Of a DNA stretch of 48,626 nt, positions 1 to 5,805 are shown piece by piece; the stretch's first letter is position 1; every line of letters starts with the position of its first letter. The translations under genes and the position numbers were made by a program. Origin of the DNA: a virus; the IMG/VR virus record IMGVR_UViG_3300025529_000003; one strand, given 5' to 3'. Below the pieces are notes generated by a model. The model had not been told where the DNA came from, searched no databases, and was given only the letters and a program-made list of their open reading frames with translations.

Positions 1-127
1 ACCTTCAAATAATTCTGGATTTCCACGATCAACTCGGGATCGCGGATCGGCTGGACTTCGCGCATATCACCACCTCGCTTGAAAAATGGCAAAAGAAAAA
101 GCACCCGCAGGTGCTACAAAATTTCAA
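1..127. repeat. Terminal direct repeat copy 1, identical to 48500-48626. Assembly overlap of a circular molecule.
   Basis: Read directly: both copies run accttcaaataattctgg...gtgctacaaaatttcaa. The repeat splits the recombinase ORF; its first 65 nt and RBS recur at 1-76. Confidence 0.95.
91..116 (-). terminator. Intrinsic terminator between the Cys-rich gene and the recombinase gene.
   Basis: Minus strand AGCACC-tgcg-GGTGCT followed by TTTTTCTTTTG. Confidence 0.7.
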
Positions 128-847: not shown

Positions 848-1270
848 CTGAATTCAATTTTGGTGTTGGGATGCGGGCAGGGATTTGCACCCTGCATGCG
901 CTCTACCAGTTCGGGTGATCATACCGCTCAGTTGCGATCTTGGCAGTAGGAGCGCCACCCGCAAGTGTCTACCTATTCCACCACCGCATCCCTATTCAGT
1001 TGACCGTCCATCTGGACGGCGACCGGGCTAACCCCGATCCCTCGTATCGGGCCGGTGGGGACCTACTGCCGCGTCTTGCACGGGTTCAGTCCCGATCAAT
1101 TGGCCCTGGAAGCCCATCTCGCCCGCAGCCCCATGGACTCTACAACCGATGCCGCAACGGCTGATTGATTTCGGAGCGACAGGCGGTGGGTTCGCCCGCC
1201 GTCCCGGGATGCCGCGTCACCGGCCGCCTAGGACAGACAGTTCAGCGGCGCGGCGGGCAAATGCTTCGCT
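848..1270 (-). ncRNA. Candidate large structured non-coding RNA, about 420 nt.
   Basis: No credible ORF or RBS. Bounded by an extended -10 promoter and the terminator. GC-rich helices, e.g. GCCCGCCG (1258-1251) with CGGCGGGC (1201-1194), and CCGTCC-agat-GGACGG (1019-1004). Confidence 0.5.
861..992 (-). ncRNA. Aberrant tRNA-like module at the 3' end of the candidate RNA.
   Basis: 9-bp acceptor-type helix GGGATGCGG (992-984) with CCGCATCCC (876-868). Type-II-like D arm GTGG-AATAGGTAG-ACAC. Arm TGGCG-CTCCTAC-TGCCA (957-941). T arm GCAGGG-TGCAAAT-CCCTGC (895-877). Tail AACACCA. Confidence 0.55.
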
Positions 1271-3973: not shown

Positions 3974-4783
3974 TCAAAATAGCGTCAGTTGCCGGCCGCA
4001 ATGTTCCGCCGCGACCGGGTTGATCCAGAGGACTTCCTCTGTGGCCTTCCCGCGTTGTGCGAGGGCCTGCCTTGTCTCCCGGTGCCAATGGCGTAGTCGT
4101 TCATCATATAATCGGTTCGCATATCCCGATAACAGCACCGGGCCCGGGTGATCATCGAGCAGATCCAGTAACTCCAGATGCTCATCGTCCGTCATCTCGT
4201 GCCGATAAATCGCTCCGCTTCTGGTTTCGAGAACGTATGGCGGATCTGCGAATATCAAGACGTCCGGCCGCCGATAACGCTTGATCAACTCTGTCGCTTG
4301 CTGCTGTTCTATCTGTACCCCTCGCAGACGTTCGGTGTATGTCATGATTCTGTTCGGAATGTCGCCCCATTGATGCGCAGGTTGAGGGTCCGACACATCC
4401 ATGACACTCCTCCAACCCGTCCGTGCGCACATTTTCGGTCCCTGACCCATCCAGCACCGCACCAGGAACCTCCGCGCTCGCTCGAGCTCGTCCAACTCCC
4501 CCCCCGATTGGTAGGAGATGTAATATTCCTGCCGGCTGTACGGTGTCCAATAGATCAGCCGCGCCAGCTCGTCAGGTCGGTCCCGGATCACCTTAAAAAG
4601 GTTGACCACATCCCCGTCAAGGTCATTGATGGTTTCGAGCGTGGCCGGAGGTTTGTTGAAAAACACCGCGCCGCTGCCGAAAAACGGCTCGAGGTACGTT
4701 TGATGTGGCGGCATGTGCGAGATGATCCAGTCGGCCAGACTCCACTTCGATCCGGGATAGTGCAATATGCGTGGTGCGGTCAT
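3974..4783 (-). CDS. dam: Dam-family DNA N6-adenine methyltransferase.
   Basis: N-terminal YPGSKWSLADWI, FFGSGAV (AdoMet site) and FADPPY catalytic motif. Confidence 0.85.
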   Translation of the reverse strand: MTAPRILHYPGSKWSLADWIISHMPPHQTYLEPFFGSGAVFFNKPPATLETINDLDGDVVNLFKVIRDRPDELARLIYWTPYSRQEYYISYQSGGELDELERARRFLVRCWMGQGPKMCARTGWRSVMDVSDPQPAHQWGDIPNRIMTYTERLRGVQIEQQQATELIKRYRRPDVLIFADPPYVLETRSGAIYRHEMTDDEHLELLDLLDDHPGPVLLSGYANRLYDERLRHWHRETRQALAQRGKATEEVLWINPVAAEHCGRQLTLF

Positions 4784-4796
4784 GGCAGCCCTCCTA

Positions 4797-5561
4797 CTAC
4801 AAAATCAACGACGTCGGTATGACCGACAACATCTTTTCATGCGCCAATCGATACATGTCCTTCTTGATTTCGAAGCCATAGGCGTGGCGATTGATTTCGA
4901 CCGCCGCTCTCAGGGTGGAACCGCTGCCTGCGCAGGGGTCAATCACGACGTCGCCAACGTCCGTGAATATCTCGATAAGTCGTTTCAATAGCGGAACCGG
5001 CTTCTGGGTGGGATGGATCTTCGGACTATCGTCCGTCTCCCACTTGAACCAATTCAGGATCATACGGCCATCGTTGTTGAACTTCGGAAGCTTGTCACGA
5101 TACAGAACGAGTCCGTATTCCGTCGCGCCCACAATCTTCATGTTCGCCTTCAGCACTTGGGGCGACGATGATTTGATGAACACCAGCGGGATGTAATTCT
5201 TGAATCCATATTTCTGTCCTTGCTCAACAACGAGTTGAAGCTGCTGGAAGGAACAAAACACGATCATGGCCGGCGCCCTTCCCCGTTCCTTCGGCTCCTT
5301 GATCAGCATCTTCGAACAGAAGTGCATGAACTCTGGAATCTTGAAGTTTTCGTCGGTATCGAAGAAGGCTTTCCCCGCCTTCTCGGACTCGCCTTTTGAA
5401 AGATCGCCATCCACATACCACTCGGGGTTGCTGGCATACGCATTGCTGCCGAGGTTGTACGGAATGTCAGCTATGACCAGTTGAGCCTTTGGGATGTTGT
5501 ATCGCTTGTAATTTTGGAAATGGTCGTTAAAGAGCTGGCATTTGATCTCCATGTTACTCAC
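4797..5561 (-). CDS. Beta-class N4/N6 DNA methyltransferase.
   Basis: ADIPYN (DPPY-type) precedes HPTQKP and IDPCAGSGST. This order is typical of the N6_N4_Mtase family. Confidence 0.85.
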   Translation of the reverse strand: MSNMEIKCQLFNDHFQNYKRYNIPKAQLVIADIPYNLGSNAYASNPEWYVDGDLSKGESEKAGKAFFDTDENFKIPEFMHFCSKMLIKEPKERGRAPAMIVFCSFQQLQLVVEQGQKYGFKNYIPLVFIKSSSPQVLKANMKIVGATEYGLVLYRDKLPKFNNDGRMILNWFKWETDDSPKIHPTQKPVPLLKRLIEIFTDVGDVVIDPCAGSGSTLRAAVEINRHAYGFEIKKDMYRLAHEKMLSVIPTSLIL

Positions 5562-5565
5562 CCAC

Positions 5566-5805
5566 TTATCCCGATCGTCTCCTCTGCCAAAGTCCGTATT
5601 GACTGGCCCACCCGATGACTGTTGGTACGGTCACACCCAATATGTCCGCAATCTCAGACGGCGTATGATACGGCCACAAGCGAATCAGATCATAGACCTT
5701 GCGCGAGCTGAGCGTCCGGCGCTGCAACTCCCGGGCGGCTGCGTAGCGTTCGTCGAGCGGCTGGCTTTCGTCGATGGCGATCTCATAGAGCTGTTTCTTA
5801 CTCAT
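5566..5805 (-). CDS. Small HTH DNA-binding protein.
   Basis: 79 aa. C-terminal PSEIADILGVTVPTVIGW helix-turn-helix. Confidence 0.55.
   Translation of the reverse strand: MSKKQLYEIAIDESQPLDERYAAARELQRRTLSSRKVYDLIRLWPYHTPSEIADILGVTVPTVIGWASQYGLWQRRRSG

Follow-up and report, generated by a model that had tools for sequence, protein, structure and literature searches.

A family of non-decoding, tRNA-Leu-derived RNAs with exchangeable domains in phages and prophages of Bacillota

Several described RNAs have a transfer RNA (tRNA)-like or acceptor-like frame that provides for the processing and stability of a variable RNA part: the c4 RNAs of P1 and P7 and the CI RNA of P4, which are processed by RNase P, the tRNA–microRNA transcripts of murine gammaherpesvirus 68 (MHV68), and engineered scaffolds. 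In YrlA, which is tied to Rsr/Ro60, the tRNA-like module is permuted, ending at the anticodon-stem position and having a capped acceptor stem. We describe here a tRNA-like RNA encoded on the minus strand, at positions 861–992, of a 48,626-nt stretch of viral DNA (IMG/VR record IMGVR_UViG_3300025529_000003; “the window” hereafter means the whole of this stretch). This element is a genuine tRNA-like RNA, neither a chance match nor a decoding tRNA. It belongs to a large family of non-decoding RNAs in phages and prophages of Bacillota that descend from leucine tRNA (tRNA-Leu) and have gone unannotated. tRNA mimicry is already known, but a search of open-access full text, conserved sequence strings included, turned up no account of these RNAs or of any phage RNA family as large as this that escapes tRNA finders and has no entry in Rfam 15. 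A catalogue from 2023, listing 10,006 candidate phage RNAs, refers to tRNA-like candidates in general terms only.

Reading the minus strand directly confirms the coordinates of the element, as well as the acceptor, D-arm, and T-arm frame that a preliminary description of this DNA had proposed for it. From its 5′ end, GGGATGCGG (984–992) pairs with CCGCATCCC, that is, CCGCAUCCC (868–876), in a closing (“acceptor-like”) helix. It is followed by the U8-G9 linker (T983 and G982; 982–983) and by a D arm of tRNA-Leu type, GTGG-AATAGGTAG-ACAC (965–981; the general pattern is G-U-G(G)/AAUAGGUAG/(A)C-A-C). A variable domain of 69 nt (896–964), ending in A897-U896 (the U48 equivalent), then replaces the anticodon arm and the variable arm. 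The T arm, GCAGGG-TGCAAAT-CCCTGC (877–895), has a 6-bp stem (GCAGGG/CCCUGC) and the loop UGCAAAU, providing U54, G55, C56, A57, and A58, and the element ends in the 3′ tail AACACCA (861–867), at which the family has no conserved discriminator and CCA. In the whole 48.6-kb window, there is a single occurrence of the D-loop 13-mer and likewise of the T-loop 11-mer. The element shows all the features of the family, namely, a closing helix of at least 7 bp, UG, the tRNA-Leu D arm, an insert ending in YAU, a 6-bp T stem, and the UGCAAAU loop.

We aligned 118 distinct frames of the family with their inserts removed (alignment A3). The linker columns are invariant in this alignment, and UG is found at U8-G9 in all 136 members that have a non-U55 T loop. 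The positions that build the tRNA core and elbow (U8, G9, A14, A15, G18, G19, U48, U54, C56, and A58) are invariant or nearly so, including the A15-U48, G18-G19, and U54-A58 combinations, with A14, A15, G18, and G19 at least 90% conserved. The frame therefore retains the parts that make up the L-shape and elbow of a tRNA: the closing helix, U8, G9, a tRNA-Leu D arm with G18-G19, U48, and the T arm. The type II (tRNA-Leu) character that had been noted for the D arm is thus real and conserved throughout the family.

Covariation supports all three helices of the frame. In A3, 99.1% of cells are paired, and changes on both sides occur at 14 of the 16 pairs: 7/7 in the closing helix, 5/6 in the T stem, and 2/3 in the D stem, where the compensated change from C11-G24 to U-A is present in the window and found in 9/118 frames. 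Family-wide, the seven inner pairs of the closing helix are 98% paired, each of them having changed on both sides, and the covariation score is 0.688, versus 0.172 for shuffles and at most 0.13 for slid partners. The detection of members had required pairing, and the count was repeated with the D arm and T loop as sole anchors. This unbiased count gives 981 Watson-Crick, 32 G-U, 12 A-C, and 39 other combinations for the closing helix and, in loci found through the D arm, 412 Watson-Crick, 16 G-U, 4 A-C, and 12 other combinations for the T stem. Over both helices, G-U pairs exceed A-C pairs by 48 to 16, from which we conclude that the selected structure is the RNA of the strand carrying the flanking genes. 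Thermodynamic folding by itself is weak evidence for the element, with a predicted minimum free energy of −50.8 kcal/mol (z = −1.59) and a centroid that retains only the closing helix and T arm. Of the folding and conservation that had been proposed as a joint check, it is the conservation of the frame helices in relatives that stood.

The same counts bear on a reading of the element at the level of DNA, as a site assembled from tRNA gene fragments, either an attachment (att) site for a small tyrosine recombinase, as had been suggested earlier under the name of a second att site, or part of the cohesive-end or packaging (cos/pac) region. In its near-identical relative L083 the element is indeed found upstream of a small tyrosine recombinase and terS (L-numbers are labels of the viral, prophage, and phage loci compared; L362 is EFDG1, L363 is B025, L484 is LP-101, and L483 is A118), and in the cos phages phiJL-1, the Leuconostoc phages, and B025 it lies 10–600 bp from the genome end. 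However, compensatory changes maintain three helices, the ratio of G-U to A-C pairs indicates a strand-specific constraint, the frame is always oriented as its flanking genes, and the same frame is conserved in tRNA clusters of Herelleviridae and beside unrelated genes without a recombinase. We consider such a DNA site highly improbable.

The frame departs from a decoding tRNA in consistent ways, several of which had been recognized in the single sequence. G at T-loop position 55 recurs across the family, the loop TGCAAAT being found in 130 of 141 members, and the 9+6-bp stack of the window copy, with its 6-bp T stem, is real. The sixth T-stem pair, which detection does not demand, is formed in 118/118 frames (G-C in 110, A-U in 4, G-U in 2, C-G in 1, and U-G in 1), 6 of them with a change on both sides, and loci found by the D arm have T-stem variants such as GUAGGG, GCAAGG, GUGAGG, GUCGGG, AUAAGG, and others. 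A 5-bp T stem with a U54-U55-C56 loop is accordingly not what we find, nor do the family sequences have a 7-bp acceptor with A73 and CCA. The closing helix is 7 bp long in 52 of the 141 members, 8 bp in 28, 9 bp in 41, and 10–15 bp in 20, with modes at 7 and 9, and at the first position past the seven inner pairs 59 members have A, 33 have C, 32 have T, and 12 have G, without a conserved CCA. The CCA-like end (ACACCA) of the window copy is coincidental, since close relatives read AATATCG or GAACACG at this position; the genuine phage tRNA-Leu genes of our D-arm scan all have A followed by CCA, CAA, CTA, or TCA. The flanks of family members are A/T-rich and G-poor. We also observe a T loop split by an inserted helix between G55 and C56 in eight loci (L158, L186, L199, L203, L216, L237, L239, and L240), following the pattern GGGTGAC-TATACGAGT...ACTCGN-CAAATCCC, and an 8-nt T loop, TGACAAAT, in L193.

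The element does not fit the definition of the tRNA, transfer-messenger RNA (tmRNA), selenocysteine tRNA (tRNA-Sec), YrlA, or C4/CI families. ARAGORN calls no gene in the window and, in its default, tmRNA, and intron modes, none in the element, and the outcome that would have made it an ordinary phage tRNA, the call of a normal one, is thus absent. Rfam 15 gives zero matches in the whole window at the gathering threshold and only two terminator-like chance matches at E ≤ 10 on 700–1450, where the tRNA (RF00005), tRNA-Sec, and tmRNA models are silent even at E = 10. No family member is called as a tRNA in 40 loci of the family, nor in the loci of 8 relatives at E ≤ 1. An anticodon arm (5-bp stem, 7-nt loop, U33, and purine 37) is absent, the inserts of 8–212 nt sharing no such hairpin. 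As for tRNA-Sec (RF01852; an 8/5 or 9/4 stack, a 6-bp D stem, and UCA), the frame has a D stem of 3 pairs, lacks an anticodon arm, and gives no Rfam match. Neither tmRNA model (RF00023, RF04321) matches the element, ARAGORN -m finds none, and there is no conserved tag reading frame; the tmRNA model works on such sequence, giving 140 bits for the phage tmRNA beside the family member of Enterococcus phage EFDG1. The YrlA model (RF02553) has no match on the window at E ≤ 10 and none on family members at E ≤ 1, its sole weak match, in L362, falling outside the element, at 4068–4168, and no Rsr is found among the neighboring genes of family members. C4/CI-type antisense immunity RNA (RF01695) has no Rfam match in the window.

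Some of these results could still be read as those of an aberrant functional tRNA (intron-containing, a suppressor, or tRNA-Sec-like) or of a miniature tmRNA. A closing helix of 7 bp and a T stem of 6 bp together make up a stack of 13 bp, which is also the length in tRNA-Sec; a layout in which tRNA ends enclose an insertion placed after the D region and before the T arm recalls tmRNA; and ARAGORN, when its thresholds are lowered and introns allowed, interprets the window element as a tRNA interrupted by a 37-nt intron. With thresholds at 80% and introns allowed, however, ARAGORN “calls” 139 of the 141 members with anticodons that are scattered and unrelated, while its standard modes and the Rfam models are silent, the inserts have no shared anticodon hairpin, and no discriminator, CCA, or tag frame is conserved. 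We therefore reject an ordinary or intron-containing tRNA, or tmRNA, because standard modes are silent and relaxed thresholds give random isotypes, and give almost no credence to an aberrant version of either. The proposal that the element is no decoding tRNA but mimics or derives from one, as the 3′-terminal module of a larger RNA, holds, as no detector in its standard settings calls a tRNA or tmRNA; the RNA cannot decode.

We find the same frame in at least 141 non-redundant viral or prophage loci, using a frame detector on fetched loci. This is a lower bound. Members were found via exact D-arm or T-arm words, and divergent ones (e.g., those with split T loops) are under-sampled. At least 120 IMG/VR contigs contain an exact copy of the 19-nt T arm, and in nearly all of them the frame is the same although the middle differs greatly. 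Host tRNA genes sharing the 3′ part of the element, a search for which had been proposed, do not emerge, none of the 120 matches listed from a genome collection overlapping a real tRNA. A scan with the D-arm 18-mer GGCGGAATAGGTAGACGC retrieves genuine phage tRNA-Leu(UAA/UAG) genes, which have a normal GGTTCGAxTCC T arm and discriminator A, together with further family members that have many T-stem sequences. In the tRNA-Leu(UAA) genes of L218 and L228, which have the same D arm, we noticed by eye a long group I intron-like insertion after CTTA of the anticodon loop.

The window copy is identical to copies in L083, L096, L486, L490, and L491, and its closest cultured relative is Paenibacillus phage Pd_22F (MZ092003.1, 15599–15717; 85% identity over 117 nt, insert included). 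In GenBank, D-arm and T-arm modules at most 200 nt apart are found in 28 and 59 phage records with two query variants, none of which annotates an RNA at the element. Both modules are carried by Leuconostoc phages (Ln-9, LN34, phiLNTR2/3, CHA, CHB, and P974), Enterococcus phages of the EFDG1 group, Listeria phages (B025, LP-101, LP-114, and LP-037), Lactobacillus phages phiJL-1, LP65, and LpeD, and Weissella, Brochothrix, and Hujiaoplasma phages, in addition to Pd_22F. Scanning a genome collection with ATGNNNGGTGCAAATCC yields mostly chance matches and 5 true members, including ones in Heyndrickxia, Pediococcus, Lacticaseibacillus, and Catabacter. From the cultured phages and genomes, all named hosts are Bacillota or relatives. 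We further observe tandem members, two or more per phage with differing inserts, in L012 (~4992–5120 and ~5400–5570), L091, L106, L079, and L041; in L091 and L106 the two copies are ~250 nt apart, an arrangement that resembles tRNA arrays.

At the position of the variable arm, the family has a structured domain that can be exchanged, and even near-identical phages differ in it. The inserts that separate the D arm from the T arm measure 8–212 nt (median ~72 nt), and those of the 141 members fall into 126 sequence clusters; CAT or TAT stands immediately 5′ of the T stem in 118/136 members. L021, L022, L039, and L107 have unrelated inserts although they share the upstream block and closing helix of the window, and, conversely, the insert class of the window is found on five different closing helices in varied contexts. 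The inserts are more structured than their shuffles (mean z = −0.69, p = 1.6e-11), and 58% of them, versus 26% of shuffles, have a helix ending 2 nt before the T stem, which is the position of the long variable arm in class II tRNAs. Sub-modules recur within otherwise unrelated inserts (groups L005/L010/L013/L132, B025/L012/L146, and L007/L018/EFDG1), among them an inner canonical T arm, GGGTTCGATNCCC, a 3′ hairpin, GTAAAACGAGGCGT...ACGCCTAT, and a helix, GTCGGGTAAAC...GTGCCGACTAA; GTTCRANNC is present in 17/141 inserts.

For the insert class of the window we assembled 7 sequences in an alignment (A4) and two further variants, giving 9 distinct sequences from viral and metagenome scans. Helix C closes the variable domain at the variable-arm position, GCGCUC (950–955) pairing with GAGCGC (898–903), which is directly preceded by a conserved GGUAG; it is 100% paired in the 7-sequence alignment, with 4/7 pairs changed on both sides, L485 adding a change from U-G to U-A. 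Hairpin D (922–948) is formed by UACUGC (948–943) and GCGGUA (927–922), is 95% paired with 4/6 pairs changed on both sides, and has a 15-nt loop that holds GAUCGCAAC, invariant in the class. RNAalifold predicts both of these independently. Helix B, CGGGUG (956–961) with CACCCG (912–917), the latter just after a conserved UGAU, is 100% paired and has one pair changed from G-C to A-U in 3/7 sequences; it crosses helix C, which would make a pseudoknot. Helix B and a helix A are thinly supported in the 9 distinct sequences. The variable domain also has two invariant GAUC motifs. Two adjoining ORFs (open reading frames) in the early region of the window, at 3974–4783 (−) and 4797–5561 (−), are DNA methyltransferase-like by motifs (Dam-like DPPY; N6/N4-type).

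This alignment revises the interior of the element as it was first read. The central 5+5-bp arm with a CCU loop does not survive comparison, its inner stem being broken at pair 37–52 in 5/7 class relatives, and the outer TTGCG/CGCAA stem, invariant in the 7 sequences, overlaps the covarying helix B; the “CCU anticodon loop” is thus an accident of this single sequence. Nor is there a separate 37-nt insert, as both stretches belong to one 69-nt domain (964–896) with different, covarying helices, in which the D-loop-like AACTGGTAGAGCGC is the 3′ strand of helix C and not a tRNA gene fragment.

In the window, the order of features on the minus strand is an ArpU gene, a non-coding leader, the element, and a terminator. 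The ArpU-family late transcriptional regulator gene (1349–1795; TIGR01637, 81.4 bits versus a cut-off of 43.1; phrog_248, E = 1.2e-29) lies directly upstream of the non-coding unit. The GC-rich leader of ~300 nt (993–1330) has just short mechanical ORFs on either strand, none longer than ~74 aa, and no Rfam match. An intrinsic terminator with an 11-bp stem followed by TTCTTTTT (815–849) ends the RNA unit, and relatives have one at the matching place. The element thus closes a non-coding unit of ~450 nt beside the ArpU gene, with leader and element probably on one transcript; a consensus scan finds no promoter of the RNA unit, so that its 5′ end is not defined. The 3′ block of the leader, GAGGGATCGGGGTTAGCCCGGTCGCCGTCCAGATGGACGG, is conserved in L021, L022, L039, L083, and L107, and a further upstream block is common to L021, L039, and L029. 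Past the element, L083 has an 84-aa ORF, a 215-aa tyrosine recombinase (PF00589), terS, and terL. The recombinase (L083 10197–10844; PF00589 71 bits, phrog_216), directly upstream of terS, is cut by the edge of the window (1–65, −), where it is preceded by the 84-aa ORF (136–390, −), which is cysteine-rich and has no family match.

Across the family, the surroundings vary. Neither clustering of neighboring ORFs nor PHROG scans, which covered 100 ORFs upstream and 96 downstream, reveal a shared partner gene, the sole enrichment nearby being that of Ltr-type regulators upstream (phrog_36 in 9/100 and phrog_248 in 6/100 ORFs) and of HNH endonuclease and terminase downstream. Further members are situated in replication modules or tRNA arrays. 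A terminator-like site follows 19% of members within 110 nt, versus 6% of control windows. In EFDG1, a family member and a genuine tRNA-Leu occur in one tRNA cluster, the member starting 2 nt past the 3′ end of the phage tmRNA; this tmRNA (KP339049.1; L362 2145–2495; RF00023, 140.6 bits) is unannotated in the GenBank record. In the Listeria phages B025 and LP-101, the element comes right after an RliG/rli62-like leader and ahead of an mcrA RNA motif, while in A118 the same leader ends in a terminator and there is no element. The RNA motifs in these gaps between late regulator and terminase lie at L363 2252–2489 and 2775–2825 (B025), L484 1205–1400 (LP-101), and L483 1001–1240 (A118), and an rli62-like core (L363 2314–2397) is 76–90% identical in Staphylococcus and Lactobacillus phages. 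In prophage phi10403S, RliG is encoded next to llgA, the gene of the late activator; its expression in lysogeny is high, and plaques form without it (PMC7397523).

What the RNA does can be approached from its sequence and conservation. The tRNA shape is probably used for processing, stability, or docking, and we lean, with somewhat better than even confidence, to the reading that the frame is a chassis by which the RNA would be processed like a tRNA precursor into a stable small RNA whose working part is the variable domain. The chassis would fold like the top half of a tRNA (L-shape) and would be recognized by the host tRNA machinery, RNase P acting at the 5′ side and RNase Z or exonucleases at the 3′ side, releasing a stable small RNA from phage transcripts. 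Its modification at position 55, its charging, and its use in translation would be prevented by G55, by the longer stack, and by the absence of A73-CCA and of an anticodon. Binding of a target specific to the lineage would fall to the exchangeable domain, and the elbow may dock the RNA onto a host machine that reads tRNA elbows. The window element would be the 3′ module of the ~450-nt non-coding unit beside ArpU, ended by the terminator, in a position that matches that of RliG in Listeria prophages.

Several points weigh against this reading. Recognition by RNase P is uncertain, because the acceptor/T stack is 13–15 bp instead of 12, 63% of members pair beyond 7 bp, and there is no preference for G at position 1. 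The minimal inserts of 8 nt in L198 and 23 nt in L127 suggest that the chassis alone may carry function, unless these are decayed copies. Support for the putative pseudoknot helix B is thinner than that for helices C and D, with one covarying pair in a class alignment of 7–9 sequences. No conserved partner protein gene is found nearby, and no target of the variable domain is found within ±3 kb, where complementarity is at chance. For the complement of inserts in the neighboring ±3 kb on the same strand, a longest-complement test gives p < 0.05 in 3/125 loci, where 6 are expected, and p = 0.74 for the window's relative; an RNAduplex screen against neighboring sequence gives a mean z of ~0 in 10 loci. 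An antisense or immunity RNA acting on neighboring phage sequence is accordingly not supported.

The position of the element among genes would also suit a punctuation signal, in which the chassis is only a processing site in cis that recruits RNase P or RNase Z, cuts in long phage transcripts at a fixed point giving the RNAs on either side defined, stable ends, and the insert is a tolerated spacer without a role of its own. Members lie between same-strand genes, often 15–40 nt ahead of the next ribosome-binding site, and some form the 3′ terminus of a leader RNA or belong to tRNA arrays; the minimal inserts of 8–23 nt and the lack of a found insert target agree with a spacer as well. Such a signal has a small chance in our view, as an ordinary tRNA gene would serve, leaving the fixed departures (G55, a T stem of 6 bp, and the missing anticodon arm) unexplained, and as closing helices longer than 7 bp should hinder rather than help cleavage by RNase P. 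Moreover, the inserts are more structured than shuffles, and the insert class of the window keeps covarying helices and invariant loops across different phages.

The conservation of the chassis can be read, too, as that of a decoy or sponge, an RNA not itself a substrate, whose invariant elbow and end-helix would titrate a host factor that reads the top half of tRNAs (candidates are RNase P, a tRNA-modifying enzyme, leucyl-tRNA synthetase, which ignores the anticodon, or a tRNA-targeting defense nuclease). Phages that otherwise differ widely have nearly the same bases in the tRNA-Leu D loop and at the elbow positions, which points to a universal host partner; features of a substrate (U55, A73-CCA, and the anticodon) are missing; and the small RNA that occupies the corresponding place in Listeria prophages is expressed in lysogeny (PMC7397523). 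A decoy leaves the structured, class-conserved, and exchangeable insert unexplained. Most known tRNA-directed defense nucleases cut anticodon loops, which the element lacks. We judge a decoy quite unlikely.

Returning to a processed RNA with a working variable domain, we propose tentatively, as a possibility of rather low probability, a modular “tRNA-chassis display” in which the near-invariant elbow and end-helix dock on a universal host machine and present exchangeable effector domains that are shuffled by recombination. The machine would be RNase P, the ribosome, leucyl-tRNA synthetase, or a T-box-like RNA; the domains would be lineage-specific effectors in host takeover, superinfection control, or counter-defense; and shuffling between phages would occur by recombination at the conserved D-arm and T-arm sequences.

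The family joins a chassis conserved nearly to the base with a segment that is among the most variable RNA segments in phage genomes, a pairing that usually marks a universal host interface joined to a fast-diversifying specificity part. The presence of members in model phages makes the reuse of the tRNA fold by phages outside translation testable. The family may explain conserved “non-coding gaps” upstream of packaging genes, is possibly linked to prophage small RNAs expressed in lysogeny, such as RliG, and offers genome annotators a new RNA gene model.

Compared with the described systems that use a tRNA-like frame, the family shares this concept and, with the c4 and CI RNAs, a phage setting as well, but no sequence or model similarity was found, and the nearby-complement test was negative. 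It is a natural counterpart of the engineered tRNA scaffold, but the engineered scaffolds and the MHV68 transcripts keep a full tRNA or swap only the anticodon stem. Like YrlA (RF02553) and the yjdF riboswitch, it is a non-decoding RNA that reuses the D-loop/T-loop elbow as a structural module (PMC4201824, PMC9142559), whereas its ends are at the acceptor position, no partner gene is linked to it, and neither the YrlA nor the yjdF model matches. Its layout resembles that of tmRNA (RF00023), with paired tRNA-like ends, a T arm, and a pseudoknotted, structured insertion between D region and T arm; unlike tmRNA, it has a true D stem, no tag reading frame, conserved discriminator, or CCA, and an insert that is far shorter and not conserved. 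With Listeria RliG/rli62 (RF02415, RF01486) it shares the setting of a non-coding unit directly downstream of an Ltr-family late activator (llgA, rinA, arpU) and upstream of packaging genes, and in B025 and LP-101 the element is fused to the 3′ end of that RNA. The leader of the window has no detectable similarity to RliG/rli62, and, as A118 has the leader without the element, RliG and the tRNA-like element are separate modules.

The closest relative by sequence is the phage tRNA-Leu(UAA/UAG), which has an identical D-arm 18-mer, GGCGGAAUAGGUAGACGC, and sits, like family members, in phage tRNA clusters. As in class II tRNA-Leu, we find U8, G9, a G13-A22 mismatch, A15 with U48, G18-G19 facing C56, U54 with A58, and a helix at the position of the long variable arm. 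The element differs from tRNA-Leu in having no anticodon arm, A73, or CCA, a T stem of 6 instead of 5 bp, G55 instead of U55, and a closing helix of 7–15 bp. The identity of the D-arm 18-mer in genuine phage tRNA-Leu genes, together with the EFDG1 cluster in which both kinds are found, points to an origin of the family from tRNA-Leu.

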